A DNA stretch of 32,000 bases from Planctomycetales bacterium (lineage in GTDB: Bacteria > 4484-113 > JAFGCY01): assembly GCA_022646745.1 (NCBI GenBank), contig CP060262.1, forward strand, positions 2,670,001 to 2,702,000, in the 5' to 3' direction. Of this stretch, positions 25 through 19,936 are shown piece after piece. The first letter of the stretch is position 1, and each line of letters opens with the position of its first letter. The notes below the pieces were generated by a model, which did no database searches, was not told the origin of the DNA, and worked only from the letters and a program-made list of their open reading frames with translations. A program made the position numbers and the translations under genes.

Positions 25-53
25 TTGACGCAGGGGCGGGTGCAAAATAGAAT
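25..53 (+). promoter_or_regulatory. sigma70-type promoter candidate for the lipoprotein cluster
   Basis: TTGACG (25-30), exact 17-nt spacer, TAGAAT (48-53). The first ATG at 96 is preceded by GAGGAAGG. Confidence 0.45.
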
Positions 54-95
54 TGCACTCTCAACGGAACTCTTTGAGGAAGGCGTGAAAACGGG

Positions 96-815
96 ATGAC
101 ATCTAAAGTTACGGTGCTGCTGCTCCTTGCATGGATGCTGCTTGTGGCGGGCTGCGGCTCGGGAAACCGCATCGATACGGTCGGTGACGGCCCGGGCGGC
201 GGGCATGACATCCCCCTGATCCCCGAAGTCGACTGGCCGACCATTGACCTGTTCAATACAGGCGTGGAAAGCGGCGGGATCACCACCTTCCCGGACGAGG
301 GCAAGTTCCTCGGTGACGGTAATGACCTGTCCCTCACCGCGACCTCCACACCCGTCACGATCGTGATCCGCGACAACACCTTCTTCAGCGGTGTCGAGCA
401 GATCTACGACACCGACGGCAATGGCATCATGGACTACATTAACATCAGCGTGCGCGCGGTCAGCGCACAGGCAGCGGCGAGCCTCGATAACAATGTGAGC
501 CTCAATGCGAACAACTTCTTCAAGGGCGGCGCGATCCTGATCGAGCCCTATGACACGAATGTGAGTGTGGCCTCCCAGGTCACGATCCCGATCAACAGCA
601 CCACTGCATTCTCAACTGCAGATTACGCCCTGTTCCGCTGGAACGGCAACTACAAGGCTCCCAGCTCAGACATCGGAACCGATGTCGGCGTCTGGGAGTT
701 CGTGAATGTCCCCGTCACCAACAACGGTGATAACACCGTGACCTTTGACATTTCACGTTATGGCGAGTACTGTGTGGTCGTGTCCCACGACCAGGGTGGC
801 GGCAGCTCCCTCTAG
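96..815 (+). CDS. lipoprotein of unknown function
   Basis: 239-aa ORF. N-terminus MTSKVTVLLLLAWMLLVAG|CGSG is a signal peptide plus lipobox. No recognisable catalytic motif. It is the first gene after the promoter candidate. Confidence 0.7.
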   Translation: MTSKVTVLLLLAWMLLVAGCGSGNRIDTVGDGPGGGHDIPLIPEVDWPTIDLFNTGVESGGITTFPDEGKFLGDGNDLSLTATSTPVTIVIRDNTFFSGVEQIYDTDGNGIMDYINISVRAVSAQAAASLDNNVSLNANNFFKGGAILIEPYDTNVSVASQVTIPINSTTAFSTADYALFRWNGNYKAPSSDIGTDVGVWEFVNVPVTNNGDNTVTFDISRYGEYCVVVSHDQGGGSSL

Positions 816-841
816 GCAGCGGCGCATACTAGAATAGTCTG

Positions 842-2833
842 ATGCGCCGGGTCGCTCCAGTCCTCATCTCAGCCCTGCTGGCAATAGCCGCACTGGTTCC
901 TGCCGCAGCCAGTGAGGATACCCAGGTCGATGGCGTGAGCGGACTGCTGTTCACTCCGACTGCCGAAGTGGTCAATGAAGGTCGTGCGGTCTTCACCTGG
1001 AGCCGCCACCTCAACACCACGATCCGCACCAACGGGGAGTTCTTTGAGCGCAGCTATGCGATGACGCTCGGCTACCTGCCGAATGTCGAAGTCGGCATGC
1101 GCTTCGCCGACTTCCCCGACCTGCCGGACAGCAACAACTCCACGAACTTCCAGGACCGCAGCATCAGTGCCAAGCTGCAGCTGTTCAATGAGGACGGCTG
1201 GCAGGGTGCCGTCGGTGCGATCGATCTCGCCGGCGACAGCCAGACCAATGAGGCGATGTACGGCGTGCTGGGCTACAACGGCATTGAGGACCTGGAACTG
1301 AGCGCAGGCTACGGCACTGACAAGCTGGACGGCTTCTTCGGCGGTGCGCGCTGGAGCCCCTTCGACCAGGCCAGCCTGGTCGGTGAATTTGTCAACGACC
1401 AGTTCAACTACGGCCTCGAGGTCCGGCCGCTGAAGGGCCTGACGCTGAAGGCCGGGCGCATCAATGAGGACGACGCCTACCAGGGCAGCTACTCCTTCCC
1501 GCTGGACCCGCGCGGCCAGGAACTGATCTGCTGCCCGGTCGCCATCGAGCGCTGTGAATGCCTTGCCACGGAACCATGTGACATCGCCGCCCAGGTGCGT
1601 GATGCACTGGTGGCTGAGTCATTTGAGAACGTGCTCGTCGGCACCGATGGCGACACGCTGGTGATCGAATACGAGAACCGCCGCTTCCGCGAACAGGTGG
1701 ACGGCCTGGCGGTGGCGGCATTGACGGCGGCGACCCACAGTGGCACAGGCATCACGCGCGTGGTGATCTCTCCGAAGCTTGAGGACGTGCCGCAGATGAG
1801 CTTCATCGCGGACATGGATGAGCTGCTCACCTTCCTTGAGGACCCGGCAGGCAGTTGCCAGAACTTCCTCAGTGTGCCGTACCGCTACAACATGTGCCCG
1901 GCGGACACCGTGTTTGCCAGTGAGGGCAACAAGCGGCCAGGCGCACTCGACGTGTCCGTGCGACCGACAAACAGCTTTGTGATCGCATCTCCATTCCAGC
2001 CCAGCTGGCGCACAGCCTTCGGGCTCGGACTGACTGAGGAACTGTCTCTGGCACGGGGCACCAAGCTGATTGCCCGCCAGAATATTCCCGTGACTGACGA
2101 CATCACCGAGAAGACCGAACCGGTGATGACGAACGCCTTCATCAACTGGAATGACAGCTGGGATGAGGACTTCTTCCTGCAGGCCCAGGCTGGCATGATC
2201 AGCCGCGGCAACTATGGTGGAGTGGCTGAAGCGGGCAAGTACTTTGACAACGACCGCTTCAAGCTCGGCGTCAGCGGCGCCTACATTGAGACGGATGACA
2301 ACGGCGATCCCGAGGACTCCATGATCCTCGGCGAGCTGGCGGTGTTTGAGCCTTCCCTGGACTTCAACATCAGCCTGCAGGGCGGCGAGTTCCTCGAGGG
2401 TGACGACGGTTTCCGCATCACGAGCACCCGCTACTTCGGCCCGACCCAGATCAGCTTCTTCGCCTACGACACCAACATGTCCAGCCCGGCCGGCGGATTC
2501 CGCATCTTCCTGCCGATCCCGCTGTACGACCAGGGCCGCCACGGCAGGTCACGGCTCGGCTGGGCTGACTACTACGGCTTCCAGTACCGCACGGACAGCG
2601 ACCCCTGGGGCAGTGTGCCGCTGCCTGGCTGGGACCTCGACCAGCTGCGGGAGCGCTTGCGCCCTGCCTACGTCAGCGAGCACTACGACGAATTCCGGCG
2701 CGCGGCCTGGCTCTACCTGGAGAACTCCTACTCGCCCTGCGAGCATTGCAGCCATGACCACGAAACAGAAGGGGCCGATGAGCTTGCCGCTGCAATGCCA
2801 GCCACGGAAGGGCAGGACGGCGCAGTTGAGTAG
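842..2833 (+). CDS. YjbH/GfcD-family outer-membrane beta-barrel protein
   Basis: 663-aa ORF with a type I signal peptide (LLAIAALVPAAAS|ED). The N-terminal GVSGLLFTPTAEVVNEGRAVFTWS matches the remembered E. coli YjbH start GGVGLLQTPTARMAREGELSLNY. The mid region GDTLVIEYENRRFR resembles YjbH GDTLYVTGEQVKYR. The C-terminal GGFRIFLPIPLYD resembles YjbH KGVYVSVPLDLFS. There is an extra Cys cluster, CCPVAIERCECLATEPC. Confidence 0.7.
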   Translation: MRRVAPVLISALLAIAALVPAAASEDTQVDGVSGLLFTPTAEVVNEGRAVFTWSRHLNTTIRTNGEFFERSYAMTLGYLPNVEVGMRFADFPDLPDSNNSTNFQDRSISAKLQLFNEDGWQGAVGAIDLAGDSQTNEAMYGVLGYNGIEDLELSAGYGTDKLDGFFGGARWSPFDQASLVGEFVNDQFNYGLEVRPLKGLTLKAGRINEDDAYQGSYSFPLDPRGQELICCPVAIERCECLATEPCDIAAQVRDALVAESFENVLVGTDGDTLVIEYENRRFREQVDGLAVAALTAATHSGTGITRVVISPKLEDVPQMSFIADMDELLTFLEDPAGSCQNFLSVPYRYNMCPADTVFASEGNKRPGALDVSVRPTNSFVIASPFQPSWRTAFGLGLTEELSLARGTKLIARQNIPVTDDITEKTEPVMTNAFINWNDSWDEDFFLQAQAGMISRGNYGGVAEAGKYFDNDRFKLGVSGAYIETDDNGDPEDSMILGELAVFEPSLDFNISLQGGEFLEGDDGFRITSTRYFGPTQISFFAYDTNMSSPAGGFRIFLPIPLYDQGRHGRSRLGWADYYGFQYRTDSDPWGSVPLPGWDLDQLRERLRPAYVSEHYDEFRRAAWLYLENSYSPCEHCSHDHETEGADELAAAMPATEGQDGAVE

Positions 2834-2917
2834 GCCCAAGTGTTCACCAAGGGGTGCTGCGCTAGTGTTCCTTGCTGTTCCCGGCTTTTCCGCTAGACTG
2901 TTATCAGGGATACCGCA

Positions 2918-3346
2918 ATGATTTGCAGGATAGCTCCGATTCAGGGTCTGGCCGTGATCCTGGCGGGAGGGTTGGCAGTTGGGTGCAATACGCATGGAAT
3001 CGGTGAACCGCAGTACCACAACGAGCAGCACAGCGTGTCCATCCTCGCGCCATCCGAGCTGGTGGCGGGGCAGGAGGTCACCTTCAGGCTGTATGGCGAC
3101 CGCTATGACAACCCGCTGTACGTCAGCTGGGACTTCGGCGGCGGTGCGCTGCCGAACCTCATTGTGGAGCAGAGCGCGGACAAGTCCGAGAATTCCGTCA
3201 CGGTGCTGCTCATCAATGACACCACCGAACCGGTGCAATATCTGCTCAACGTCGACGTTCGCAGTGACGAAGGCAAGGAAGGCACAGGCGTGCTGCGTTA
3301 TACGGTGCAGCCTGACCCGAACACTCCGCCAGCCGGCGACCAGTAG
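2918..3346 (+). CDS. truncated member of the lipoprotein family (PKD-like module only)
   Basis: 142 aa. Lipobox LAVG|CNT. PKD-like signature YVSWDFGGGALPN followed by a beta-rich stretch. It lacks the cadherin-like and C-terminal modules. Confidence 0.65.
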   Translation: MICRIAPIQGLAVILAGGLAVGCNTHGIGEPQYHNEQHSVSILAPSELVAGQEVTFRLYGDRYDNPLYVSWDFGGGALPNLIVEQSADKSENSVTVLLINDTTEPVQYLLNVDVRSDEGKEGTGVLRYTVQPDPNTPPAGDQ

Positions 3347-3370
3347 CTTGATACGCCCCGGGGGCCAGAC

Positions 3371-4654
3371 ATGCGCATCCTGACAACATTATTCTGCCTC
3401 GGATCCTGCCTGCTGATGGCTGCGCTTGCCTCCTGCGGTGCATCCAGCCCGCCCCCGCAGCAGGGCGCACCTCCGGTTGAGGCGATCATTGTCGCCCCGT
3501 TTGAGATGCGCGGTGGCAGCCAGGCTGTCTGGCGAGTCAACGTCAACGGTTACAACGGCCCCTTCACGATCCACTGGGACTTCGGCGGCGGGGCGGTTGT
3601 CAATGAGCATGACTTCAGCAATGAACTCAGCCCGAACCTGCTGCAGGTTGGCATGGTGAACGGCACTGAAGCGGTGAAGGAATACACCGTCACCGTCAGC
3701 GTGACCGACAAGGTCGGTGAGACTGATACCAGCACCTTCCGCTACCGGGTTGACCCGCCGGGTGATGAGCCCGACCCGGTTGACCCGCCGGTCAAGCCGC
3801 CTGTCGACCCGACCCCCGGCAACCGCGCACCGGTGATAGACAGCTTCAGCGTCAATAACGGTGTGCTGCAGGTGTCCTGTTCCGACAAGGATGGCGACGA
3901 TATCACCGTCAGCGTGGTCGACGAGTTCGGCAACGAATATCCTTCGCAGGAAGGGACGGAAACCCAGTTCGAGATCGACCAGTGGGTCGCATTCTGGCAG
4001 GCGGAGGTCAGCCTGGAGATCACGGCCAGCGACGGCCAGGACGCTACAAGCACTACCGCCACTTATGCACCGAAGCCGATCAGCATTGCTGATGACACGC
4101 TGTATGCGGTTGCCATGTCCGGCACGGCGCCATCTGTGCGAGACCCGCAGCAGGCCAGTGATGGGCAGTCCGTGCGGGTGGTGGTATTCACCGGCCCGAC
4201 CAAGCAGCCCTTCCAGCGGATGGCGTCTGTCGCCGTGACCTGCGAGGATGGCTCGGACTACGTGCTCGGCAGCTTTGATGCCGGAGCGCCTGACGGCAGC
4301 ACCGATGCAAATGGCCTGACGGGGATTGACGGGATCTGGCAACTGCTTGAGGCTGACGACCTGCAGTACAGCGCTGATGACCAGATCGGCGGCATCCACC
4401 GCCGTGACCTGCCCGGCAGCCGCGGGGCGCTGGACTTCAGCATCATCCCGCAGGGCGCCCTTGAGATAACTGGTGCTTATGGCGTGCTGTTCAGTTTCGA
4501 GATCGCATTCAGCGAGCCGGGCGAGTACCGCATCGGTTTCCAGCCCGTTGACACAATCAGCCGTACCTATTACCAGGATGACAGTGCCTCAAACGAATTC
4601 TTCTGGGGAGATGTGACGAACAGCACGGTGCCGAACATCATCACCGTGAACTAG
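3371..4654 (+). CDS. paralogous surface lipoprotein (PKD-like + cadherin-like + conserved C-terminal module), most divergent member
   Basis: 427 aa. Lipobox LAS|CGAS. Contains FTIHWDFGGGAVVN, a Pro-rich linker PPGDEPDPVDPPVKPPVDPTPG and SCSDKDGDDITVS. C-terminal module: DDTLYAVA...GVLFSFEIAFSEPGEYRIGFQPVDTISRTYYQDDSASNEFFWGDV...IITVN. Confidence 0.8.
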   Translation: MRILTTLFCLGSCLLMAALASCGASSPPPQQGAPPVEAIIVAPFEMRGGSQAVWRVNVNGYNGPFTIHWDFGGGAVVNEHDFSNELSPNLLQVGMVNGTEAVKEYTVTVSVTDKVGETDTSTFRYRVDPPGDEPDPVDPPVKPPVDPTPGNRAPVIDSFSVNNGVLQVSCSDKDGDDITVSVVDEFGNEYPSQEGTETQFEIDQWVAFWQAEVSLEITASDGQDATSTTATYAPKPISIADDTLYAVAMSGTAPSVRDPQQASDGQSVRVVVFTGPTKQPFQRMASVAVTCEDGSDYVLGSFDAGAPDGSTDANGLTGIDGIWQLLEADDLQYSADDQIGGIHRRDLPGSRGALDFSIIPQGALEITGAYGVLFSFEIAFSEPGEYRIGFQPVDTISRTYYQDDSASNEFFWGDVTNSTVPNIITVN

Positions 4655-4730
4655 GGATTACCGGGATATACCGAACAGGGATCTGACTGGGCCGCAAGCC
4701 GCGACAGGCGGCGTAACTGGGGAGGTCTGC

Positions 4731-5951
4731 ATGAAGCAGATGGGACTGATACTGGCAGTGCTGGTGCTTGCACTGGCAACGTCGTGCGATTCGCTCGTTC
4801 GCGATACTTTAAATGTAGGTCATGGTAGAGGTCATGGAGCAACAATCGACATTAGGAGTCCAGTTGCTACCGGACCCAATGCGCCAAGTCTGTTTGGCAA
4901 TGAGACAGCTGAATTCTCTGCTGATATCATCGGTGTGAATGGACCGTTCAATATCTCGTGGAGATTCGGAGGGGCTGCCGAGGACACAACAAGCGTTCTC
5001 TTTAACTCAGGTACGAGTACAGTTGAGGTGCTCCTGATTGATCTGGATGAAGAGACTACCTTTACCGCTACTGCTACTCTCACAGACAGTGCGGGAATTG
5101 CTTATTCTGACTCAGTTACATTCACTGTCGGACCAACCCAGAACATCCCACCTACGATTGATTCTCTGACATTCTCCGATGGAATCCTCACAGCTACTGC
5201 CTCAGATCCTGACAACGACTACCTGGAGTTTTCTGCGAAGGTGCTGTCTGGGGTGGTGCGCGTCAGCGGGCCATATAACACCACTGCCACCAGTGCCAGC
5301 TTCAGTCTGGTAAGCGAGGACATCCTTGCGGGAGGTAACTTCTCAGTCCAGGTCACCGTACAGGACGGCAGGGGAGGGGAGGACAGCGATACCTTCAACC
5401 AGGAATTCAAGGCCTTCCCGCTTGAACCCGACACCCTCTACGCCATTGCCACTTCGGACAGGACTTCCGCAGGCGGCAATGTCAGGGTGGTGGTTGCCAC
5501 CGGGGACACCGCCAATCCCTTCCAGTATGTCAACGGCTGCGGTGTAGTCTGTGAGAATGGGGCCAGCTATGCTTCCACAACATTCGACGTCGGCAACCCG
5601 GATGACACACCGGATGTCGGTTCAGCCAATCCGATTGACGGCGTCTGGGGCGACATGGGGGCCACGAGCTTCCTTCTGGCGCCTGACAACTTCATCACTG
5701 GCAAGGATCTCGGTAACGGCAGCAGCCGCACCGACTTCAATGTGACGCCGCTCGGTGGCAGTGACATCACCGCCAATGGCATCCTGTTCAGCTTTGAGTA
5801 CACCTTCGCGTCTGCGGGTACATACCATTTAGGCTTTGAAGCCGTGAACATAGTCAGCCGCACCTACTACACCGATGCCAGCCAGTCCGAGGACTTCTTC
5901 TGGTCTGACATCTCGAATGATCATCAGTACAACACGATTGTAGTGGAGTAG
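4731..5951 (+). CDS. paralogous surface lipoprotein (PKD-like + cadherin-like + conserved C-terminal module)
   Basis: 406 aa. SD GGGGAGG lies upstream. Lipobox LATS|CDS. Contains GPFNISWRFGGAAEDTTS, TASDPDNDYLEFSA and the C-terminal module FPLEPDTLYAIATSD...YNTIVVE. Confidence 0.85.
   Translation: MKQMGLILAVLVLALATSCDSLVRDTLNVGHGRGHGATIDIRSPVATGPNAPSLFGNETAEFSADIIGVNGPFNISWRFGGAAEDTTSVLFNSGTSTVEVLLIDLDEETTFTATATLTDSAGIAYSDSVTFTVGPTQNIPPTIDSLTFSDGILTATASDPDNDYLEFSAKVLSGVVRVSGPYNTTATSASFSLVSEDILAGGNFSVQVTVQDGRGGEDSDTFNQEFKAFPLEPDTLYAIATSDRTSAGGNVRVVVATGDTANPFQYVNGCGVVCENGASYASTTFDVGNPDDTPDVGSANPIDGVWGDMGATSFLLAPDNFITGKDLGNGSSRTDFNVTPLGGSDITANGILFSFEYTFASAGTYHLGFEAVNIVSRTYYTDASQSEDFFWSDISNDHQYNTIVVE
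5421..5951 (+). repeat. 531-bp near-identical direct repeat, copy A (3' part of the lipoprotein gene)
   Basis: Aligns without gaps to 6632-7162 at a constant offset of 1211 nt. I see only 2 mismatches in the first ~120 nt, then a dense patch of mostly synonymous differences around 5543-5585, then high identity again. Confidence 0.9.
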
Positions 5952-5953
5952 GC

Positions 5954-7162
5954 ATGAAGCATCTGACTTTAATGATGTTAATTCTATTCGGATGTGGATC
6001 AGTAGTTGGCTGTGAGACCCTGAATGTAGGTACCGACAACCCTCATACTCTGCAGATCACTCTCAGTGCACCTGTTGGCACTGGGCCAAATGCTCCTGGA
6101 CTTTGGAGTGGCGAATCCGCAACGTTTTCCGCTACGACAACTGAGTTCAGCGGACCTTTCGAGTTTGACTGGAACTTTGGCGGAGCTGCAGCGAATACAA
6201 CTTCCAGATTGGACTCTGCTGGAACAACCTCTGTAGGAGTTACCTTTGTTGATCTTGCAGCGCCGTCAGACTTCACTGCAACAGTGACAATGACAACCGG
6301 AGACGGTAGGCAGGCAAGCGACAGAGTGAATTTCTACGTATCTGCGGGGGAAAACTTCTTTCCTGTACTGGAATCACTGAGTATTGACAATGGAATTCTC
6401 ACAGCTATTGGCTCAGATAATGACGGCGACTCCCTGTACTTCGACGCATATGTCCTGTCAGGACAAATCCTGTTAGGTAAACCATTCAACACAACTGAAG
6501 TTAGTGCACAGTGGAAGGTAGAACTAAGTGACAAGTTTGTAGGATCAGGTTGGGAGATTCAAGTTTTTGTTGGTGACGGAACCGGTGCAAGCGATTCGGG
6601 CAAAATTTCAGGTGCTTTTGAACCATTTCATCTTGAACCCGACACCCTCTACGCCATTGCCACTTCGGACAGGACTTCCGCGGGCGGCAATGTCAGGGTG
6701 GTGGTTGCTACCGGGGACACCGCCAATCCCTTCCAGTATGTCAACGGCTGCGGGGTTGTGTGCGAGAACGGTGCTTCCTACGCCAGCCAGACCTTTGACG
6801 TCGGCAATCCGGATGACACACCGGATGTCGGTTCTGCCAATCCGATTGACGGCGTCTGGGGCGACATGGGGGCCACGAGCTTCCTGCTGGCCCCCGACAA
6901 CTTCATCACCGGCACCGACCTCGGCAATGGCATGAGCCGCACCGATTTCAATGTGACGCCGCTCGGTGGCAGTGACATCACCGCCAATGGCATCCTGTTC
7001 AGCTTCGAATACACCTTCGCCTCGGCAGGCACATATCACCTGGGCTTTGAAGCGGTGAACATCGTCAGCCGGACCTACTACACCGATGCCAGCCAATCCG
7101 AGGACTTCTTCTGGTCTGACATCTCGAATGATCATCAGTACAATGTAATTGTTGTGGAGTGA
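5954..7162 (+). CDS. paralogous surface lipoprotein (PKD-like + cadherin-like + conserved C-terminal module)
   Basis: 402 aa. Starts 2 nt after the previous stop. The lipidated Cys is probably VVG|CETLNVG, by alignment to the CDTLN of its paralogs. Contains FEFDWNFGGAAANTTS and GSDNDGDSLYFDA. The C-terminal 177 aa are almost identical to those of the preceding gene. Confidence 0.85.
   Translation: MKHLTLMMLILFGCGSVVGCETLNVGTDNPHTLQITLSAPVGTGPNAPGLWSGESATFSATTTEFSGPFEFDWNFGGAAANTTSRLDSAGTTSVGVTFVDLAAPSDFTATVTMTTGDGRQASDRVNFYVSAGENFFPVLESLSIDNGILTAIGSDNDGDSLYFDAYVLSGQILLGKPFNTTEVSAQWKVELSDKFVGSGWEIQVFVGDGTGASDSGKISGAFEPFHLEPDTLYAIATSDRTSAGGNVRVVVATGDTANPFQYVNGCGVVCENGASYASQTFDVGNPDDTPDVGSANPIDGVWGDMGATSFLLAPDNFITGTDLGNGMSRTDFNVTPLGGSDITANGILFSFEYTFASAGTYHLGFEAVNIVSRTYYTDASQSEDFFWSDISNDHQYNVIVVE
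6632..7162 (+). repeat. 531-bp near-identical direct repeat, copy B
   Basis: Partner of 5421-5951. Begins at the same CTTGAACCCGACACCCTCTACGCC and ends at the stop codon. Confidence 0.9.
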
Positions 7163-7165
7163 AGA

Positions 7166-7585
7166 ATGAAGCACATAATTTGTATTTGCATTATTCTGAC
7201 GACCCTGATGATCGTCTCCTGTTCTTCAGGCAAGGCAACGAGTGGAAATGTCTGGCAGGGCTGGGTCAGCATCCAGAGGTTCCTTGCCACTGACAGTGAG
7301 AGCGGTTCGATTCCAGTAGCCGGGAAACAGGCGACTCTCAGGGCTTTCGTTCTCACAATGGCGCGACCAATCAAGATCCGCTGGGAATTCGATGCAGCAA
7401 TTGATCCCATCGTCACGGATTACGCACAGGACAGTCTGGTGGAGACGGAGGTTCTGCTTCCCGCGAGTGAGGATGGTTACAACGTGAGATGCACCATGTA
7501 CGTGATCTACAACGACGAGGAAATCCACAGTTCTAGCAATGACTTCTTCGTCATTGGCACCGGCGAAATCCTGAACGCAGAATAG
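7166..7585 (+). CDS. truncated, degenerate member of the lipoprotein family (PKD-like module only)
   Basis: 139 aa. Lipobox MIVS|CSSG. Contains a degenerate signature KIRWEFDAAIDP. AT-richer than its neighbours. No C-terminal module. Confidence 0.55.
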   Translation: MKHIICICIILTTLMIVSCSSGKATSGNVWQGWVSIQRFLATDSESGSIPVAGKQATLRAFVLTMARPIKIRWEFDAAIDPIVTDYAQDSLVETEVLLPASEDGYNVRCTMYVIYNDEEIHSSSNDFFVIGTGEILNAE

Positions 7586-7608
7586 TTGCTTGAAGGGAGG
7601 GAAAAACC

Positions 7609-8847
7609 ATGTTCAGATTGTCAATCGCGATAATGCTGCTGTCAGTGCTGTGTTCCTGCAATGGTGGCGGGGGAAGCAAGTCGCAACCCTTCAACCACAA
7701 GCTGCAAATCACCCTCACTGACCCCGTCGGGCTCGGCAAGGATGCGCCGCTGCTGGCCGGTGGACAGCAGGCCCGCTTTTCAGCCGTTGTCACAGGGGTG
7801 AACGGCCCTTTCAACATCTCCTGGAACTTCGGCGGGGGCGCAGACAATACGACCAGTAGTCTCGCAGTGGCCGGTACAAGCACGGTGGACGTGCCGATGA
7901 AGGTGATCAGCGGCCAGCAGGACTACACAGCAACAGCGACGGTGACCGACGCTGCAGGAGTCAGCCAGACCTCAGCCATTAACTACCAGCTGCTGGGTTG
8001 GAACAATTCCGCACCGCTGATCGAGGACCTGACCCTGAGCAGCAGCAACCTCCTGACTGTGACAGCTTCTGACGAAGATGGCGACGAACTGAGCTTCAGC
8101 CTGCGCAGGGGGATAGATGACAAGGACCTCGGTCCGCCGGACAGCGTGGATGGCAACGTAGCAGTCTGGGACCTGAGCGATGAGCTGGCCCCGAGCCCGA
8201 ATGACATCCTCGCCAATGGCAATCTCAGCTTCGGCGGCTTCATCGCCACGGTTACGGATGAGCATGGTGCCAGCACTGAAAGCGAGCAGCTCGGAGGAAA
8301 CTTCGAGGCCTTCCCGTTGGAGGATGACACACTCTATGCGATTGCCAGTCGAAGGTCCGCAAAAGTTGGAAATCGCGTCAGGATATTCGTGGCAACCGGT
8401 GATACAGCCCAGCCATTCCTGTATCTCAATAGTTGCGCCGTTGTTGTCGAGAATGATGCCAGGCTGGTACCAAACTCACTTGATGGCGGCTCGTTTGATG
8501 ATGATGGCGCTGCGGACACGCCGATGGATGGTGTCTGGGCTGACGTTGCGGCAAGCAGTATCTTCGTGGATGCCGGTTTCGGTGGTTTCCTGGAGGGAAC
8601 TGACCTCGGTGATGGCACTTATTACATTCCCTTCCACGTAACGCCCTTCAACGGGACACCAATCACTGCAAATGGCTTGCTCTTCAGTTTTGAACTGGAA
8701 TTCCGCAAACCGGGGACCTACCATCTTGGCTTCCTGGAGCACAATGTCATTAGCCGGACCTACTACTCGGATTCTCTGGATGGCCCGGACCACTTCTGGT
8801 CAGACATCAGTAACAACCACGACTACAACACGATCGTGGTGGAGTAG
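7609..8847 (+). CDS. paralogous surface lipoprotein (PKD-like + cadherin-like + conserved C-terminal module)
   Basis: 412 aa. SD GGGAGGG. Lipobox VLCS|CNGG. Contains GPFNISWNFGGGADNTTS and TASDEDGDELSFS. C-terminal module: FPLEDDTLYAIAS...ANGLLFSFELEFRKPGTYHLGF...HFWSDISNNHDYNTIVVE. Confidence 0.85.
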   Translation: MFRLSIAIMLLSVLCSCNGGGGSKSQPFNHKLQITLTDPVGLGKDAPLLAGGQQARFSAVVTGVNGPFNISWNFGGGADNTTSSLAVAGTSTVDVPMKVISGQQDYTATATVTDAAGVSQTSAINYQLLGWNNSAPLIEDLTLSSSNLLTVTASDEDGDELSFSLRRGIDDKDLGPPDSVDGNVAVWDLSDELAPSPNDILANGNLSFGGFIATVTDEHGASTESEQLGGNFEAFPLEDDTLYAIASRRSAKVGNRVRIFVATGDTAQPFLYLNSCAVVVENDARLVPNSLDGGSFDDDGAADTPMDGVWADVAASSIFVDAGFGGFLEGTDLGDGTYYIPFHVTPFNGTPITANGLLFSFELEFRKPGTYHLGFLEHNVISRTYYSDSLDGPDHFWSDISNNHDYNTIVVE

Positions 8848-8851
8848 GAGT

Positions 8852-10087
8852 ATGCATCTTGTTGCCAGAACAGTTTTCCTGCTGCCTGTGCTGTGTTGCC
8901 TGCTAATGCTGCCGGCCTGCGGCTCGGGCGGCGAGAAGCAGGGAAGTGTCGATCCACTGGCCGTTACCTTACATCATCCTGTCAGTACCGGGTCTGACTT
9001 CCCGGGACTTTATGGTTATCAAACTGCAAATATCACTGCTGACATCAGCGGAGGTGTTGCACCTTACAGTCTGACCTGGTTCATGGGAGGAGCTGAAGAG
9101 GACCAGTTCACTGACCTTGATGCCGCAGGTACTGCCATGATCTCAGTCCAGTGGCCATACTTGACTCAGGCAACTTTCTATAATCTGCAACTGCAGGTCA
9201 GTGACGCAGCTGGCAACGTAAGCCAGTCAGGTGTAGAGATCACGGTTGGCCAAGCTCAGGATGTCTGCCTCATATCCATTGACAGCCTCACATACAGCGA
9301 TGGACTGATCCGCGTTAGCGGCAGTGATGCCGATGGTGGCGCGCTGACATTTGCCGCGCAACTGGATTCCGGTGAAGTCATCATCACTGGCCCGTTCAAT
9401 GAAACTGCGACATCAGCGGAGTTCGTTGTTAAGCCCATTGATGTGCTGGAAGGCGGAAACTTCACCGTTACGGTCAGTGCCACTTGCGAGTTAGGTTTCG
9501 AGAATGCCTCAGACTCAGTCTCCGGCTCCTTCGATGCATTCCCATTGGCGGATGACAATCTGTACGCCATTGCCACGACGAACCGGGTGAAAGTTGGAGA
9601 GCCTTTGCTGGTTGTTGTAGCAAGCGGAAAGACTGTTAGTCCGTTTGAATTGGTCAACGTTACGATTTCGTGTGAATCTGGAGCTGAGATCGTCTGGGGA
9701 TCTGGTGATATTGGCATCCCAGACGAAGATGGGCTGCCGGATCAGCCATATGATGGGATCTGGGCTGAGTTGGAAGCTGGTCAGGTGGTGTTTGATCAAC
9801 CTTCACGAGGCGGTTTCATGCCTGTCTTCGATTTTGGTGATGGACCACATTACCCATTCAGGCTACGTATTCATGAAGGACTACCTGTTGCCTCAGTTGG
9901 AATCCTCTTCAACTATCAGTACGTGTTCCATGAGCCTGGCACCTATAGACTGTCAATTTTGGAAAATGAGACTATTCCAACTGATTTTCCGTCCACCTTC
10001 TATAGAGAGTTCAGCACTGGTCCGGACCACTTCTGGTCCGACATCAGCAACAACCATGCCTACAACACGATTGTGGTGGAGCTATGA
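8852..10087 (+). CDS. paralogous surface lipoprotein (PKD-like + cadherin-like + conserved C-terminal module)
   Basis: I chose the internal ATG at 8852 (MHLVARTVFLLPVLCCLLMLPA|CGSGG), which is preceded by GGAGTAGGAG. The track start at 8672 would overlap the previous gene by 176 nt. Contains YSLTWFMGGAEED, GSDADGGALTFAA and ...HFWSDISNNHAYNTIVVEL. Confidence 0.8.
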   Translation: MHLVARTVFLLPVLCCLLMLPACGSGGEKQGSVDPLAVTLHHPVSTGSDFPGLYGYQTANITADISGGVAPYSLTWFMGGAEEDQFTDLDAAGTAMISVQWPYLTQATFYNLQLQVSDAAGNVSQSGVEITVGQAQDVCLISIDSLTYSDGLIRVSGSDADGGALTFAAQLDSGEVIITGPFNETATSAEFVVKPIDVLEGGNFTVTVSATCELGFENASDSVSGSFDAFPLADDNLYAIATTNRVKVGEPLLVVVASGKTVSPFELVNVTISCESGAEIVWGSGDIGIPDEDGLPDQPYDGIWAELEAGQVVFDQPSRGGFMPVFDFGDGPHYPFRLRIHEGLPVASVGILFNYQYVFHEPGTYRLSILENETIPTDFPSTFYREFSTGPDHFWSDISNNHAYNTIVVEL

Positions 10088-11301: not shown

Positions 11302-11382
11302 GGGTGGCTGGCCGGAAGTGCAAGGCAACCCAATGCCGCAGTTTGGACCGGAATTCAGGATTACTTACTAAGGAGGACAGGA

Positions 11383-11586
11383 TTGGCGCCGATAGAGAGG
11401 GGAATTGCGGAGTTTGACCGGGATGTAGCCTGCAATTTCTGCCCGGTACTTCACAGTACAGGGGAAATTATGTACCATCTAGGATGTTCACCGCTGGGTC
11501 AGGGGAATCCTGGACAGTTCGTGGATGACCCGGGTGTCGGACACCTGGTGTCCAGGTTCGGGCGAACTACCGCGACCCGATGGTGA
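11383..11586 (+). CDS. hypothetical small protein (67 aa, TTG start); doubtful
   Basis: AGGAGG (11371-11376) lies 6 nt upstream of TTG 11383, inside the 475-bp gap of the array. There is no recognisable motif and the codon usage is unremarkable. Confidence 0.3.
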   Translation: MAPIERGIAEFDRDVACNFCPVLHSTGEIMYHLGCSPLGQGNPGQFVDDPGVGHLVSRFGRTTATRW

Positions 11587-11687
11587 AATCATGGTAGTAT
11601 TTATTGTTCAGGTGTGACTATATTAATAAGGTATGAATCGGCTGTATTATCCGTTCGTCACGGAATTTACTTTTGTGACAGTTTCTG

Positions 11688-11716
11688 TTGCGGTTTAACT
11701 GAGTATCGGATATAAT
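11688..11716 (+). promoter_or_regulatory. sigma70-type promoter candidate for the last paralog
   Basis: TTGCGG (11688-11693), 17-nt spacer, perfect TATAAT (11711-11716). It sits in the AT-rich stretch of the window, about 60 nt upstream of the GTG start. Confidence 0.45.
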
Positions 11717-11776
11717 TGCCAGACTTAAACCTGTACCGTTCCGACACACCTGTGTATGTGGTTAAGGAGGAATGTT

Positions 11777-12982
11777 GTGAAAAACTTTATCGTCCTGGTG
11801 GCACTTGGGCTTCTCGCTCTTGTGTCAAGCTGCGATACTCTTAACATCGGCAGTGGCCAGCCGCAGAGGCTGTCCATCGAGCTGAGCGCTCCGGTGGCAA
11901 CCGGTGCTAACGCACCGGGCCTGTTCGGTTCTGAGACTGCTACGTTTTCCGCTGCCATTATTGGTGTGAACGGACCGTTCAACATCTCTTGGAACTTCGG
12001 CGGCGCCGCCACCAACACGACCAGCACCCTGGCCGTGGCCGGCACCAGCACCGTCAGCGTGACCTTCGTTGACCTCGCTGCTGCCACTGACTTCACCGCC
12101 ACCGCGACCGTCACCGACGGCGCCGGCGTGAGCCAGTCTGATTCCGTGACCTTCAACGTGGGCGCTACCCAGAACCAGAGCCCGAGCATCGACAGCCTGA
12201 CCTTCGCGGGCGGCACGATCTCCGTCACCGGTTCTGATCCGGATGGCGACAGCCTGACCTTCAGCGCTTCCCTTGACAGCGGCGATGTGACCGTGAGTGG
12301 CCCGAATGGTGCCAACGCGACCAGCGCCAGCTTCGGCGTGAGCCCCAACGACATCCTTGCCGGCGGTAACTTCACCGTGACCGTGACGGCTGATGACGGC
12401 AAGGGCGGCACCGCCTCCGATTCCGTCAGCGGCAGCTTCGACGCCTTCCCGCTGGCTGATGACACCCTGTATGCAATCGCTACCGCTTCCAGCGCCAGCG
12501 CTGGCGGTAACGTCCGCATCGTGATCGCCACCGGTGACACCGCCAACAGCTTCCAGTACCTGAACGGCTGCGGCGTGGTCTGCGAGAACGGCGCTTCCTA
12601 TGCCGCCACCTCCTTCGACGTCGGTACCCCGGATGACACTCCGGACGTTGGCTCCGCCAACCCGATCGACGGCGTGTGGGGCGACATGGGCGCCACCAGC
12701 TTCCTGCTGGCTCCGGATAACTTCATCACCGGCACCGATCTCGGCGACGGCACCAGCCGTACCGACTTCAACGTCACCCCGCTGGGTGGTAGTGACATCA
12801 CTGCGAACGGTCTGCTCTTCAACTTCGAGTACACCTTCGCCAGCGCTGGCACCTACACCCTTGGTTTTGAGGCCGTGAACGTTGTGAGCCGCACCTACTA
12901 CCAGGACAGCACTGCTGCGACGGACTTCTTCTGGGGCGACATCAACAACACCCACGACTACAACACCATTACCGTGAACTAG
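11777..12982 (+). CDS. paralogous surface lipoprotein, probable highly expressed copy
   Basis: GTG 11777 lies 6 nt after a consensus AAGGAGG (11764-11770). The track's ATG at 11756 is the alternative start. Lipobox LVSS|CDT. Contains GPFNISWNFGGAATNTTS and GSDPDGDSLTFSA. The C-terminal module is about 85-90% identical in protein to the 4731 and 5954 genes but recoded with C/G-ending codons. Confidence 0.85.
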   Translation: MKNFIVLVALGLLALVSSCDTLNIGSGQPQRLSIELSAPVATGANAPGLFGSETATFSAAIIGVNGPFNISWNFGGAATNTTSTLAVAGTSTVSVTFVDLAAATDFTATATVTDGAGVSQSDSVTFNVGATQNQSPSIDSLTFAGGTISVTGSDPDGDSLTFSASLDSGDVTVSGPNGANATSASFGVSPNDILAGGNFTVTVTADDGKGGTASDSVSGSFDAFPLADDTLYAIATASSASAGGNVRIVIATGDTANSFQYLNGCGVVCENGASYAATSFDVGTPDDTPDVGSANPIDGVWGDMGATSFLLAPDNFITGTDLGDGTSRTDFNVTPLGGSDITANGLLFNFEYTFASAGTYTLGFEAVNVVSRTYYQDSTAATDFFWGDINNTHDYNTITVN

Positions 12983-12999
12983 TAATTAGCTCGAACACA

Positions 13000-13064
13000 G
13001 GTAACAGGAACCAGGCCCGGTTCGGATGTGGAGTAATCCGCGTCCGGCCGGGCCTGCCGTTACC
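13000..13064 (+). other. long imperfect intercistronic stem-loop
   Basis: GGTAAC...CAGGCCCGG (13012-13020)...CGGAT/ATCCG...CCGGGCCTG (13048-13056)...GTTACC. There is no U-tract after it, so it is not a canonical terminator. Confidence 0.4.
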
Positions 13065-13087
13065 ACCCCCCGGATGATGCAGGCCCA

Positions 13088-13117
13088 TTGTCCGGAAAAA
13101 CAGGAATCCGGTACAAT
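13088..13117 (+). promoter_or_regulatory. weak promoter candidate for the 1035-aa gene
   Basis: TTGTCC (13088-13093), 18-nt spacer, TACAAT (13112-13117). AAGGAG lies just before ATG 13196. Confidence 0.25.
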
Positions 13118-13195
13118 TAATGTTATTGGACTCCCTGTTCAATTCTGTGGGCTGCTAGCTGCCCTGAGGCGGCCGGCCCCGAGAAGGAGAGAAGC

Positions 13196-16100
13196 ATGAC
13201 TTTACGTAAGATGTTTACCGGCGTGCTCTGCATTCTCATCCTGCTGATCAGCGCGAGCTGCTCCAACAGCAAGAATGTTGGACTGTCCCAGCCGGATGAC
13301 CAGCGGAACACCACCGGTGTCAGCGTCGATTCCTTTGAGATCACCCGCTACAACGCGGCTGGTTTCGAGGATGCAAGCCTCAACCAGAGCATCGATGCTT
13401 ACATTGAGCAGGTGGGATCCGAGACTGCATTGGTCATCAGCGTTGATGAGCCGGATGTGGATCGCACGATTGCGCTCAACATCGACTTCGACGGCGTCAA
13501 CATGCATTACGAGCGCACCGAGTTCCACGGTCTGCTTGGCAATGATGACGATGTGCTGGGTGCCAGTTTCGGCCTGACTGAAAGTGTCCAGCTTGGCCAG
13601 ACGGCCATCCGTGACTACGATCCGGGCAGCATCAGTGGCCGCTTCGCCACTGTGTACTTCGCCCCCGGCGCGAGCCGTACGGCGAGTGCAATTCCCGGTG
13701 ATGTCTACAAGAGCAGCACCGGTGTTGCCGTCAACCGTTGCGGTGACAACGCCAGCTTCGTGGCTGACGAGGAAACCGAGAATGAGGCCTGGTTCACCAA
13801 TGGCTGGATGATGGCTGACGGTGACCAGAACGGCCAGTGCACGATTGCCGACATCACCCCGATCGGCATCTACCTGAACCAGAGCTGTGAGACCAACCCG
13901 CTCGCGACCCGTGCGGACTATGACAACAACGGCCAGGTTACGATTTCCGAGCTGACCCCGCTGGGCGTACACCTCAATGAGGGTGTGGCAAGTTATCGTG
14001 TTGGCCTGCGTGATGACGGTGATACCGGCACCACGCTGTCTGCAGAGAAGACCGTTGATCCCAGCGCGGACGCGATTGCCGCATCCGGCACTCCGGCGGT
14101 GGCTGATCTGCGCACGATCTTCCGTCATTACAACGTGGCATCCCTTTTCACCCCTGGTGAAATCGCGGCTGCCAACGTTAATGGCACCAACGGTGTCGAG
14201 ATCTGCGTGATTCCGACCAACACCAACTCTGCCAATGGCACCGGCACCCTGGCATTCGTGCCCTGGGGTGGCACAGTTGTTGGTCAGGATGATGAAATCG
14301 TTGTCACCAACTTCGACATCCAGATGGTGGGTGTCGGCGGCGGCAGCGGTGATGACAGCAACATCTTCGACAGCGGCATCAGCGGCGGTGACGTCACTGC
14401 CAACGCTGACGTGAGCTTCCAGGTGAACGCAATCGAGGGTACCTTCAACGGCCTTGACTTCGATGCCACCACCCTGCCAGAGGGCATGGACGCTGCTCAC
14501 TACGCCAATACCCTGACTGCTGTGCGAGACAATGCGAACTGGACCTTCGGCACTGCCGGAGCTGCCGGCTTCCGCAGTACCTCCGCCTGGGTGACTGACG
14601 GTGCGGGTAATGACCTTGGAGGCGTGGGCGACCCCGGCGCCGGTGTGGTCTTCCCGGATTACGACCCCGAGTCTGACGAGTTCAGCCCCGAGGGTACCCT
14701 GAATGTGAACCTCGCTGCCGCAGCCTCCCTGGCGACCGGCACCGTGGCCAGCAAGAACTACAAGGTCGTCGTGCTTTCCGAGCGTGATTACAACTGGACC
14801 GTGGATGTCCTCCGCGACCCGCAGCAGGCCACCTTTGGCCCGATCCTGAAGCAGGGCTTCGACCCGCAGGATGAGTACGCGCTTGTCATCGGTACCCGTT
14901 CCTTCTTCTTCACCGCCGATTGGGGCGATCTTGGCGTTCCCGCCAACTTCGACAGCATCGAGATGGAGATCTGGAAGGTCGAGGGCACCGGCCCGGGCAA
15001 CTGCTCCCGTGTCAACGACTTCACCTTCACCGAAGGTACCCCCGGTACCGGTGAGTTCGGCATTCGTGAGAACACTGAGAACCCCGGCGAGTACGTGTTT
15101 GAGTACGTCGTCAACGGTGCAAACCTGCAGGGTAGCAGCCAGTACGTGGTGCGCTGGTTCAACGGCGTTGAATGGTCCTCCATCAACATGCCCGAGAACA
15201 AGACCATCCCGTCCGGTCCTGCCCCGGCTGCCGCTGACCTGACCAGCATCCCGAACGCGGGCGGCTACAAGGGCAGCGCGAAGGTCGACTTCCTGCAGAT
15301 CCTCTACCCGAACCCGAAGATCCGCCGCTGGAGCGACGTGTTCCCGAACCCCGAGACTGAGTCAGTCGACGTTGAAAAGGGCCTCGACAACGACGGCGTC
15401 CAGGTTGACAAGACCCTGGCCTTCAATGACATTCTGCGCACCAACGGTGATGAGTTCGCGATCTTCGTGACCCCGATCGACAGCCCGCAGGGCTTCTCGA
15501 TCTGGCCCCAGGTCCTGATCAAGAACTTCACCGCCACCGGCGCCAGCGATGTCACCAGTGCTGACATCCCGCTTGCCACCCCGAGTGGCCCGATCTACTG
15601 GTCAGCCTCGGGCGCCAGCGCGATCATCGTCGCCCAGCACGGTCTTGGCCGAGTTGTGGTGGACATCGCCGGTCTTCCCACCGATGACGGTGAATTCGGC
15701 CCGATCAACTACGGTTTCGGCCTGTTCAGCCCGCAGGGTGTGGATTACCTTGAGGTTGGTGAAGGCACCTTCACCATGTCCCCGGTGGATGGCACCGTGG
15801 CCCCGAACGCGATCAACTGGGGTATCGACGCCTTCGACCGCGAGGAGCGCGACCTTGATAACGGTGATTACAGCAACCACATCCTCAACGGTTCCTTCGT
15901 GAACGACCCGGTCCAGCCCTTCGTGCTGTGGATCGAGTTCAACGGCGGTAACGTCTACGACTGGGAGCAGAACGAGGAGAAGGTCTGGAAGCTCAACGGC
16001 TCGCTGGACAACATCTATGTCCAGGTCAAGGACGTTGACCAGCCTGCTGATGTCCGCATCATGGAGGTTGGCCTGCGCCTTGTGGGTGTGACCCCGACCG

Positions 16101-16303: not shown

Positions 16304-16326
16304 GATCCCCTTTTGAGTGGATTCCC

Positions 16327-16356
16327 GGCCCCCCGCCCCGGCGGGGGGCCTTTTTG
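16327..16356 (+). terminator. rho-independent terminator
   Basis: GGCCCCCCG (16327-16335) pairs with CGGGGGGCC (16342-16350), followed by TTTTTG. It lies 24 nt after the stop of the 1035-aa gene. Confidence 0.85.
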
Positions 16357-19933: not shown

Positions 19934-19936
19934 GAG

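Follow-up and report, generated by a model that had tools for sequence, protein, structure and literature searches.

The window, as the 32,000 nt stretch of DNA analysed here is called, contains an operon-like unit at 25–16350 made up of tightly spaced, co-oriented genes (Table 1). Gene A encodes a lipoprotein, gene B an outer-membrane protein of the YjbH/GfcD family, nine further genes encode lipoproteins of a single family, termed C, and gene D encodes a lipoprotein with a dockerin-like module. Intergenic gaps at most junctions of the unit are −4 to 84 nt; that between A and B is 26 nt, thus leaving no space for a small ORF. B is separated from the next gene by 84 nt, not by the 85 nt of the original prediction, whose nine co-oriented downstream lipoprotein genes are borne out by the C family (seven full-length genes and two short ones), with D located beyond them. 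Lipoboxes are present in every lipoprotein gene of the unit, including A. The hairpin that follows D is the only strong terminator in the unit.

Table 1. Positions of the genes, protein segments and putative signals of the unit; nucleotide positions are those of the window, aa positions those of the protein.
Feature	Position	Strand	Remarks
Promoter-like site TTGACG-17-TAGAAT, 5′ of gene A	25..53	+	Consensus scan, 10/12 matches; pattern only
Gene A, lipoprotein, 239 aa, lipobox LVAGC, no known family	96..815	+	ORF
Gene B, YjbH/GfcD-family double-barrel outer-membrane protein, 663 aa	842..2833	+	Pfam, hhalign, AF2
B signal peptide, type I (non-lipoprotein)	aa 1–24
B N-terminal 12-strand beta-barrel, aa 48–220	983..1501	+	DSSP on AF2 model
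B Cys-rich linker CCPVAIERCECLATEPC, N-terminal barrel to middle domain	1529..1579	+
B middle alpha/beta domain, aa 245–346	1574..1879	+	AF2 secondary structure
B C-terminal 13-strand beta-barrel, aa 369–583	1946..2590	+	DSSP on AF2 model
B C-terminal helices, aa 599–629	2636..2728	+	AF2 model
B acidic disordered tail with CEHCSHDHE	2729..2833	+	pLDDT <50 at aa 634–663
Short C-family lipoprotein, 142 aa, N-terminal Ig-like domain only	2918..3346	+	Weak PKD match
C-family paralog, 427 aa	3371..4654	+	ORF
C-family paralog, 406 aa	4731..5951	+	ORF
C-family paralog, 402 aa	5954..7162	+	ORF
Short C-family lipoprotein, 139 aa, N-terminal domain only	7166..7585	+	L009 ortholog 88% identical
C-family paralog, 412 aa	7609..8847	+	ORF
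C-family paralog, 411 aa from MHLVARTVF start	8852..10087	+	ORF
C-family paralog, 405 aa	10084..11301	+	ORF
C-family lipoprotein, 408 aa, three beta-sandwich domains	11756..12982	+	AF2 pLDDT 89.7
Gene D, lipoprotein, 1035 aa	13196..16303	+	Orthologs 29–82% identity
D dockerin-like duplicated calcium-loop module, DGDQNGQCTIAD... / DYDNNGQVTISE...	13793..14005	+
Intrinsic-terminator-like hairpin, 10 G-C pairs then T run	16327..16350	+	24 nt past D stop

No gene for YjbE, YjbF, YjbG, Wza or Wzc was found in the unit, A, C and D have no Pfam match of the YjbE/GfcA, YjbF/GfcB or YjbG/GfcC type, none of the cassette proteins has a match in NCBIfam, and Rfam gave no match over the whole window. According to Pfam, the ORFs at 16607–27211 encode arginine biosynthesis proteins, a peptidase, an esterase and an MFS transporter; ORFs past 27211 were judged by eye from their translations. 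Indeed no polysaccharide gene was seen anywhere in the 32 kb, as had been claimed, however this absence is weak evidence by itself because E. coli yjbEFGH likewise stands alone, with no glycosyltransferase or Wza gene nearby. The missing YjbE/F/G-type partners are the true difference from E. coli yjbEFGH.

The ORF of B is present exactly as predicted, and its membership in the YjbH family is confirmed. PF06082 (YjbH) is its sole Pfam match (E 3.4e-26, 92.7 bits against a gathering score of 24), and is present in all members of the B clade in precomputed annotation. In hhalign the clade profile is collinear with E. coli K-12 YjbH over 514 columns (probability 98.7%, E 3.8e-16; query 40–579 versus YjbH 35–662), and the hallmark motifs named earlier fall inside this alignment, with GVSGLLFTPTAEVVNEG paired with GGVGLLQTPTARMAREG and DGDTLVIEYENRRFR with KGDTLYVTGEQVKYRDSR of YjbH. 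A homolog search started from the alignment returned a set identical to that of the single-sequence search. In the AF2 model of B (pLDDT 82, pTM 0.80) a middle domain separates a 12-strand barrel from a 13-strand one, and the second barrel is followed by C-terminal helices; Foldseek of this model against the PDB returned generic barrels only and no solved relative.

GfcD is built alike from a 12-strand barrel, a middle domain and a 13-strand barrel (PMC11494523), and likewise carries a cleavable non-lipoprotein signal peptide (PMC8592465). The N-terminal barrel of B is the counterpart of GfcD-N (PMC11494523). The middle domain is the best-conserved stretch in the clade alignment and carries VRDALVAESFENVLVG...RRF...PKLEDVPQ. 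By DSSP, the C-terminal barrel comprises 12 long strands and a broken 13th (aa 571–583); its odd strand number is that of GfcD-C, which has been modelled with a lateral opening (PMC11494523). The predicted strand count is consistent with, but not proof of, a putative lateral seam in B. The helices beyond the barrel occupy the same position as the element called the ‘plug’ in the Figure 1 legend of the GfcD report (PMC11494523).

Two cysteine-containing segments of B had also been singled out, and both are present. The linker contains C230, C231, C238, C240 and C246, which are missing from the aligned segment of E. coli YjbH; a Cys-rich linker is specific to the B clade, in which these residues are kept in 19/20, 14/20, 12/20, 5/20 and 15/20 members, respectively. 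The CEHCSHDHE tail (C633/C636), disordered in the AF2 model, is specific to the subclade of the window, being confined to the three closest relatives (3/20 clade members).

The lipoproteins of the unit are less easily placed. Orthologs of A (24–88% identity) occupy the same place directly upstream of the barrel gene in 10 other genomes of the main clade. A has no match in Pfam or NCBIfam, its profile has none in the PDB, and hhalign against E. coli YjbF and YjbG gave a probability of <2%, that is, no similarity. The conserved part of the C family is a C-terminal module of ~175 aa, located at 12461–12979 in the 408 aa copy, and it is this copy that is the top match of all single-copy orthologs from distant genomes. 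C was ancestrally a single gene, and its nine copies here arose by local expansion. The 142 aa short lipoprotein has orthologs in L005 and L009 at 84–85% identity. Between the 402 aa and 406 aa paralogs the C-terminal modules are 98% identical in protein sequence, versus 44% for the N-terminal parts. Recent gene conversion was considered for these modules and dropped, their DNA identity being only ~90%; strong purifying selection is therefore the better reading. Conservation of the C-terminal module far above that of the N-terminal part fits a common interaction partner.

The C family is restricted to the lineage of this B clade, and one orphan C-like gene is located far from any barrel gene. 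Foldseek of the 408 aa C model returned Ig-like adhesins and type II cohesins among generic Ig-like matches; the cohesin matches were 3l8q (E 6e-7) and, weakly, 4wi0_A (TM 0.46 on the target). A profile of the C-terminal module found nothing in the PDB or Pfam, and hence no cohesin signal at the sequence level. The residues from the acylated cysteine onward follow the motif C-[DG]-[TS]-x-N-[VI]-G in 9/9 C orthologs and 7/8 D orthologs, and in 0/8 neighbouring control lipoproteins. Asp is found at +2 in the C orthologs, a residue that acts there as an inner-membrane retention signal in E. coli, although the rule is not universal (PMC7857515).

D is the last gene of the unit wherever the DNA extends far enough. 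Its profile matches X-dockerins in the PDB (4wi0_B and 4u3s_B, E 5e-7) and other dockerins (2y3n_B and 4fl4_A, E 4e-3). The two DxDxNG...D/E loops of the dockerin motif are kept in 9 orthologs, of which 2 have a weak match to Pfam Dockerin_1. The dockerin module is also the only portion of D that can be traced in the sister clade (39% identity). A cohesin-like region at the N-terminus of D, suggested by eye, was supported neither by the PDB profile search nor by hhalign against the C module. In cellulosomes, type II cohesins pair with X-dockerins (4wi0, 4u3s, 3l8q), and the matches of the D profile to 4wi0_B and, weakly, of the C model to 3l8q and 4wi0_A recall such pairs. Unlike cellulosomal pairs, C and D are lipoproteins of a diderm organism, as indicated by FlgH and FlgI ring genes nearby, and neither is attached to a glycoside hydrolase.

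The co-occurrence of barrel and lipoproteins that had been proposed as a check was found in full: the order A-B-C is present in 11/11 readable distinct genomes of the main clade, and D in the 9/9 in which the DNA reaches its position. Within the main clade identity falls to 44% for the barrel and to ~30% for C and D. The linkage recurs in a sister clade, whose barrels are 27–29% identical to B, as B′-C′ in L022 and as B′-C′ followed by a dockerin lipoprotein in L026, the one sister-clade locus extending past B′-C′. The upstream flank differs there, with SecA and without A. At the P0071 locus, gene calls on two contigs give A, a 156 aa ORF, C and D, with ~1.1 kb in place of the 1.9 kb barrel gene; the barrel thus appears to have been lost while A, C and D are intact. 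A metagenome scan with P0071 gave no match.

Polysaccharide export genes immediately upstream of the window were not found. The same genome encodes there the C-terminus of a Ppx/GppA-type protein, a call made by eye and by position, relatives having Ppx-GppA at this place. In relatives the 10 kb upstream contain flagellar genes, CheR, CHAD and Ppx, and not polysaccharide export genes. Within ~10 kb no polysaccharide gene is present in the annotated main-clade flanks except in L015, nor at either sister-clade locus. In L015 a polysaccharide exporter (OPX) gene lies 4 kb upstream of the cassette; together with genes of sugar-nucleotide enzymes it occupies the stretch 4–8 kb upstream. The housekeeping flanks are syntenic as well, with CHAD-CHAD-Ppx upstream and Sua5-PrmC-RF1 downstream. 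The loci are all from a single uncultured lineage in which synteny is extended, and the conserved gene order is therefore partly a matter of shared ancestry.

Compared with E. coli YjbH/GfcD (PF06082; yjbEFGH and gfcABCDE-etp-etk), B is homologous over its full length, yet only ~21% identical. In both cases the gene is located directly 3′ of a lipoprotein gene. However, the unit described here is without YjbE/GfcA, YjbF/GfcB, YjbG/GfcC and Wza/Etp/Etk, and the partners of B belong instead to three unrelated families of lipoproteins, one of which contains a dockerin. Given this gene context, B, although of a family usually linked to capsule export, may export or dock lipid-anchored proteins instead of sugars. 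The explanation preferred here, tentatively and with a likelihood judged somewhat short of even, is that B serves as a dedicated outer-membrane partner of the A, C and D lipoproteins, probably as the gate for their export to the surface. Its conserved partners are all lipoproteins, which counts for this explanation, as do the operon anatomy, the linkage kept in both clades and the architecture shared with GfcD, whose 13-strand barrel has been modelled with a lateral gate. The Ig/PKD domains, the dockerin and the possible cohesin-like fold of the cargo-like proteins suggest a surface location, as do the high conservation of the C module and the motif at the acylated cysteine of C and D. On the strength of the linkage, a putative translocon is inferred.

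The earlier statement that the mechanism of this barrel family is unknown is outdated, since a lateral-gate model for lipid-anchored cargo exists for GfcD. In that model the 13-strand barrel has a stable lateral gate that frees lipid tails, and other lipid anchors are possible according to its authors (PMC11494523). By extension, A, C and D would leave the cytoplasm through Sec, receive their acyl chains on the lipobox cysteine and be transferred to the outer membrane. The unfolded polypeptide would cross through the barrel lumen of B, and the acyl chains would leave sideways to the outer leaflet through a putative open seam in the 13-strand barrel, the lateral exit proposed in the GfcD model for capsule anchored by lipid A. 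Once exposed, D and C may assemble into a complex through the dockerin of the former and the conserved C-terminal module of the latter. In the sublineage of the window C has expanded to nine genes, whose N-terminal Ig-like domains have diverged.

Slam of Neisseria and other Proteobacteria offers the closest parallel in gene arrangement, an outer-membrane barrel gene next to lipoprotein genes. The same adjacency is seen at 11 main-clade and 2 sister-clade loci, the lipoproteins being candidate substrates. In many cases a Slam gene adjoins that of its lipoprotein cargo, and phyla other than Proteobacteria that carry lipoproteins on their surface lack Slam (PMC7857515). C, as the candidate cargo family, also resembles Slam cargo in combining a conserved C-terminal module with variable N-terminal parts (PMC7857515). 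However, Slam is composed of a TPR domain and a 14-strand barrel (PMC7857515), whereas B is not homologous to it, has 12 and 13 strands and is without TPR. LptD/LptE is comparable to B in the concept of a lateral barrel seam releasing a lipid anchor to the outer leaflet (PMC11494523); however, LptD forms one barrel of 26 strands, which a periplasmic bridge supplies, and no sequence relation to B was seen. Two reports implicate LptD, itself a lateral-gate barrel, in the surface sorting of lipoproteins (PMC12065857; bioRxiv 10.1101/2022.12.21.521298).

Several observations count against a gate. Protein transport has been demonstrated for no member of the YjbH family. Barrels of 12–13 strands are narrow, so that a cargo of 1035 aa must pass unfolded. 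The P0071 locus, apparently without a full barrel, the orphan C-like gene, the OPX gene of L015, the Asp at +2 of the C orthologs and the shared synteny of a single lineage point the same way, as does the glycosyltransferase locus of P0120, the closest relative that is not in a lipoprotein-linked clade. The proposal of a dedicated translocon or platform is partly supported, by linkage conserved in two clades, and is to be qualified in view of P0071, L015 and P0120. E. coli GfcD is known to bind the lipoprotein GfcB together with GfcC, and export of these by GfcD is not known (PMC8592465); a barrel–lipoprotein pairing is therefore already present in polysaccharide systems.

The strongest alternative is judged only a little less likely: B keeps its presumed ancestral role and exports or anchors a lipid-linked polysaccharide made by genes elsewhere, with A, C and D as accessory proteins that replace GfcB/GfcC or organise the surface by glycan binding and are not cargo. 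B has kept all three domains and belongs fully to the YjbH family, and the synthesis genes are not near the stand-alone yjbEFGH operon of E. coli either. The GfcB–GfcC heterodimer bound by GfcD contains a lipoprotein (PMC8592465). P0120 is located among Bac_transf, MBOAT and four GT4 genes, with no YjbF/G called alongside it, and Marinobacter YjbH adjoins Wza/Wzb/Wzc; together with L023, these next-nearest relatives occupy classical polysaccharide loci. The OPX gene 4 kb from the L015 cassette likewise fits a polysaccharide function. Additionally, Ig/PKD and dockerin modules are frequent in carbohydrate-active surface proteins. However, no polysaccharide gene is conserved by the cassette, be it in the annotated main-clade flanks bar L015 or at both sister-clade loci, and A resembles neither YjbF nor YjbG. 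The conserved lipoprotein partners amount to >1,600 residues, far above the GfcB/C pair, and a periplasmic accessory factor would hardly be expected to expand nine-fold, as C has, while its N-termini diversify.

It is less probable still that B is a structural anchor without a channel that nucleates a dockerin-based envelope complex, its middle domain binding periplasm-facing lipoproteins or its loops docking lipoproteins that surface by another route. The middle domain being the best-conserved part in the clade agrees with such a role, as do the binding of GfcB/C by GfcD and the dockerin-type assembly modules of D, and an intact set of A, C and D without a full barrel, as at P0071, is less of a problem if export does not run through the barrel. 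However, to our knowledge every dockerin characterised to date functions extracellularly, and the intact retention of both barrels, including the odd-stranded C-terminal one, suggests transport over anchoring. That B and the lipoprotein genes are uncoupled in function and adjacent by inheritance, in a region that rearranges slowly within one lineage, is very improbable. The conserved housekeeping flanks, the orphan C-like gene and the possible lack of a barrel at one locus would fit this view, but the spacing is tight, one promoter-like site and one strong terminator bracket A to D, B-C(-D) is kept in the sister clade despite a changed upstream flank and the loss of A, and the order has been retained while the proteins diverged to ~30% identity.

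If B is indeed a dedicated lipoprotein partner, a broader and more doubtful extension is that YjbH/GfcD double barrels could be general exporters of lipid-anchored macromolecules. The branch described here would have switched from glycans to acylated proteins, as a third, non-proteobacterial surface-lipoprotein translocon after Slam and LptD, feeding a dockerin complex with a nine-gene C array. YjbH/GfcD has been described as the largest family of multi-barrel outer-membrane proteins, with 4,187 members (PMC8346858). It has no demonstrated substrate, and lateral release of a lipid anchor is the sole mechanistic proposal (PMC11494523). A search of the literature on YjbH/GfcD yielded no paper tying the family to lipoprotein export. 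How surface lipoproteins are exported outside Proteobacteria, where Slam is absent (PMC7857515), is a separate question, and a branch of the family with lipoproteins as its only conserved partners joins the two. Should B instead carry a glycolipid, the cassette proteins A, C and D would be a set of accessory factors new to the YjbH/GfcD family. In distant genomes this cassette is compact, with three to four genes (A-B-one C-D) in ~7 kb.

By sequence and predicted fold, the barrel protein of the window, B, belongs to the YjbH/GfcD family. It scores 92.7 bits against Pfam PF06082 (YjbH; gathering score 24), and a profile built from its clade gives a collinear alignment of 514 columns to E. coli K-12 YjbH (hhalign, probability 98.7 %, E 3.8e-16). 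Both sequence motifs named in the original prediction, the N-terminal G-LL-TPTA-EG and the central GDTL...R motifs, lie inside this alignment. An AlphaFold2 model with 20 clade members as input (pLDDT 82, pTM 0.80) predicts for B a domain order that matches published GfcD, in which a 12-strand barrel and a middle domain precede a laterally open 13-strand barrel and a C-terminal plug (PMC11494523, PMC8346858). A Foldseek search of the PDB with the model returned generic barrels only, indicating no relative of B with a solved structure there. B has a signal peptide without a lipobox, in agreement with GfcD, which is not acylated (PMC8592465).

Features of the lipoprotein cassette (window positions) and of the modelled protein B (residues)
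Feature	Position	Strand	Description	Basis
Promoter-like site	25-53	+	ahead of A	pattern match
A	96-815	+	239-aa lipoprotein, 26 nt upstream of B	
B	842-2833	+	663 aa	ORF, Pfam PF06082
C family	downstream of B	+	nine genes: seven full-length (~400-430 aa), two short (~140 aa)	
D	13196-16303	+	1035-aa lipoprotein, last gene of unit	
Terminator-like hairpin	16327-16350	+	after D; sole strong one	
B, first barrel	aa 48-220		12 strands	AlphaFold2 model
B, middle domain	aa ~245-346		alpha/beta	AlphaFold2 model
B, second barrel	aa 369-583		13 strands	AlphaFold2 model
B, C-terminal helices	aa 599-629			AlphaFold2 model
B, tail	C-terminal to helices		disordered	AlphaFold2 model

The cysteine cluster predicted for B is present (1529-1579) in the linker from the first barrel to the middle domain, whereas E. 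coli YjbH has no cysteines at the aligned place. Conservation within the clade is partial (C230 19/20, C231 14/20, C238 12/20, C240 5/20, C246 15/20). The CEHCSHDHE tail, disordered in the model, is shared by the three closest relatives only.

Members of the YjbH/GfcD family are found with YjbE/F/G partners and polysaccharide genes; neither was found around B in the window. Instead, B comes second in a run of closely spaced genes that share one strand, most intergenic gaps being -4 to 84 nt. The nine lipoprotein genes previously noted after the barrel were recovered, together with two further lipoproteins, A upstream and D at the end; all eleven partners of B carry a lipobox.

The association recurs in other genomes. 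In the main clade, which is B's own, the order A-B-C is kept in all distinct readable genomes (the window and ten others) at barrel identities from 82 % to 44 %, and D follows C in 9/9 where the DNA extends far enough. Seven of these main-clade genomes have a single C gene. A multi-gene C array is seen only in the window's subclade (barrels at least 77 % identical), thus the nine-gene array arose by local expansion. The C family does not extend beyond the uncultured lineage to which this barrel clade belongs. At one locus (L010 7942-8638, a low-coverage MAG contig) A is broken into two ORFs that overlap, and some barrel cluster members are broken too (527 + 111 aa), probably through frameshifts in the assembly and not by decay into pseudogenes. 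At another (L015 11939-12933), ~1 kb without a plausible ORF separates barrel and C, compared with 100-300 nt in other genomes.

Searched exhaustively with a profile, a set of 1.84 billion representatives yielded 1,936 family members. The B clade amounts to one representative at 50 % identity, scoring 1,007 bits; the nearest others, P0119, P0120 and P0121, score 357-382 bits. P0119 and P0121 form a sister clade in which the pairing is also found. At its locus L022, a C-like lipoprotein (31 % over 398 aa) comes after a barrel 29 % identical to that of the window, and at L026 barrel and C-like gene precede a 542-aa lipoprotein whose dockerin (39 % identity) is the sole part recognisable as D. 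In both, secA is the next gene upstream and A is missing. In contrast, P0120 has Bac_transf, MBOAT and four GT4 genes around it, Marinobacter YjbH adjoins Wza, Wzb and Wzc, and a further relative (L023) adjoins glycosyltransferases. Thus, the lipoprotein linkage marks out a single branch in a family otherwise associated with polysaccharides.

Synteny extends to the flanks, where CHAD-CHAD-Ppx precedes the cassette and Sua5-PrmC-RF1 follows it; even L026 shares the downstream flank. All cassette loci are therefore related by vertical descent within a single lineage, and the conservation of their gene order counts only in part as independent evidence. The P0071 locus (JGI sample 3300056388; two contigs, gene calls) reads CHAD-CHAD-Ppx, A (234 aa), a 156-aa ORF, C (418 aa), D (1081 aa), PrmC and RF1. 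As only ~1.1 kb takes the place of the 1.9-kb barrel gene, the barrel appears to have been deleted or truncated naturally. Additionally, there is an orphan C-like gene far from any barrel (L018 10001-11149). It shares 51 % identity with window C across the second Ig domain and the C-terminal module, and is flanked by thioredoxin-like genes and a TetR gene; terminase and portal genes of prophage type are a few kb away.

No relatives of A were detected in Pfam, NCBIfam or a PDB profile search, and hhalign found no similarity to YjbF or YjbG. A has one conserved calcium-loop-like motif at ~aa 100-115 (D-x-D-G-[ND]-G-x-x-D-[YF]-[IV], D105 invariant) that resembles half a dockerin repeat. C is modelled as three beta-sandwich domains (pLDDT 89.7), the two N-terminal ones Ig/PKD-like; for its C-terminal module of ~175 aa, neither Pfam nor the PDB gave a sequence match. 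This module is 98 % identical between the adjacent paralogs 4731-5951 and 5954-7162, compared with 44 % for the N-terminal part. As the module DNA is only ~90 % identical, recent gene conversion is disfavoured and strong purifying selection is indicated by the sequences.

In the PDB, the D ortholog profile matches 4wi0_B and 4u3s_B, both X-dockerin chains (E 5e-7), as well as two dockerins of enzymes (4e-3), and two calcium-loop repeats are conserved in 9/9 orthologs; by these sequence matches D carries a dockerin-like module. Foldseek with the C model returned type II cohesins, including 4wi0_A, the partner chain of 4wi0_B. These came amid many generic Ig-like matches at modest TM-scores, so that C is a candidate cohesin partner and the pairing with D only a lead. 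C and D orthologs (window, L005-L016), otherwise unrelated, have C-[DG]-[TS]-x-N-[VI]-G directly after the acylated Cys (9/9 and 7/8, respectively; e.g. CDTLNIG, CGTKNVG); A has CG[TS]GNR. The motif, which could serve as a sorting signal, was found in 0/8 other predicted flank lipoproteins taken as controls; most expanded C paralogs and the sister clade have it in degenerate form.

The observation on B and its neighbours is solid; a functional interpretation is plausible. As the operon combines one GfcD-type barrel with lipoproteins only, the simplest reading is that B would serve those lipoproteins, most probably as a gate to the surface. Lipoproteins are lipid-anchored polymers. In the GfcD model, the C-terminal barrel conducts a lipid-anchored polymer whose lipid tails exit sideways via an open seam, and the authors of the model stress that the channel has no feature specific to lipid A (PMC11494523). 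The N-terminal barrel of YjbH/GfcD has been likened to FapF, an exporter of protein (amyloid) (PMC9603273). LptD, a lateral-seam barrel, has been implicated in lipoprotein surface sorting (PMC12065857; bioRxiv 10.1101/2022.12.21.521298), and Slam genes commonly adjoin their cargo genes (PMC7857515). B may act like Slam or LptD, although it belongs to neither family; the literature searched contained no link between YjbH/GfcD and lipoprotein export. A surface gate fits the extracellular-type modules of the cargo-like proteins (Ig/PKD domains, dockerin), the post-Cys motif common to C and D, and the near-constant C-terminal module of C paralogs with diverging N-terminal domains. That B is a dedicated partner or translocon of the cassette lipoproteins is tentatively put forward as a real possibility, though one falling short of an even chance.

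B could also retain glycolipid export with the lipoproteins as accessories, which is rather unlikely. Its more distant relatives reside in polysaccharide loci, and L015 has a polysaccharide exporter (OPX) gene (Poly_export + SLBB, 480 aa), UDP-glucose dehydrogenase and epimerase (4334-5776, 1896-4287) 4-8 kb upstream of the barrel, in place of the flagellar/CheR genes upstream of CHAD-Ppx. The original prediction had cited the absence of Wza, Wzc and glycosyltransferases in 32 kb; however, E. coli yjbEFGH is also isolated from synthesis genes, making this a weak argument alone. A purely structural platform is improbable, and a coincidental neighbourhood is very unlikely. The cassette is small enough for a heterologous host.

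Beyond the cassette, the ORFs from 16607 to 27211 belong to arginine biosynthesis and unrelated functions (Pfam); those beyond 27211 were judged from translations alone. Between the argG-like and argC-like genes lies a 367-aa ORF (17785-18888) with no Pfam match and a P-loop-like motif, GSCMNSGKT, which may act at an uncharacterised step of arginine biosynthesis or substitute for one of its enzymes. Two abutting head-to-tail ORFs of ~400 aa on the minus strand (27208-28401 and 28401-29648), unrelated to B, have by eye the look of paralogous methyltransferases.
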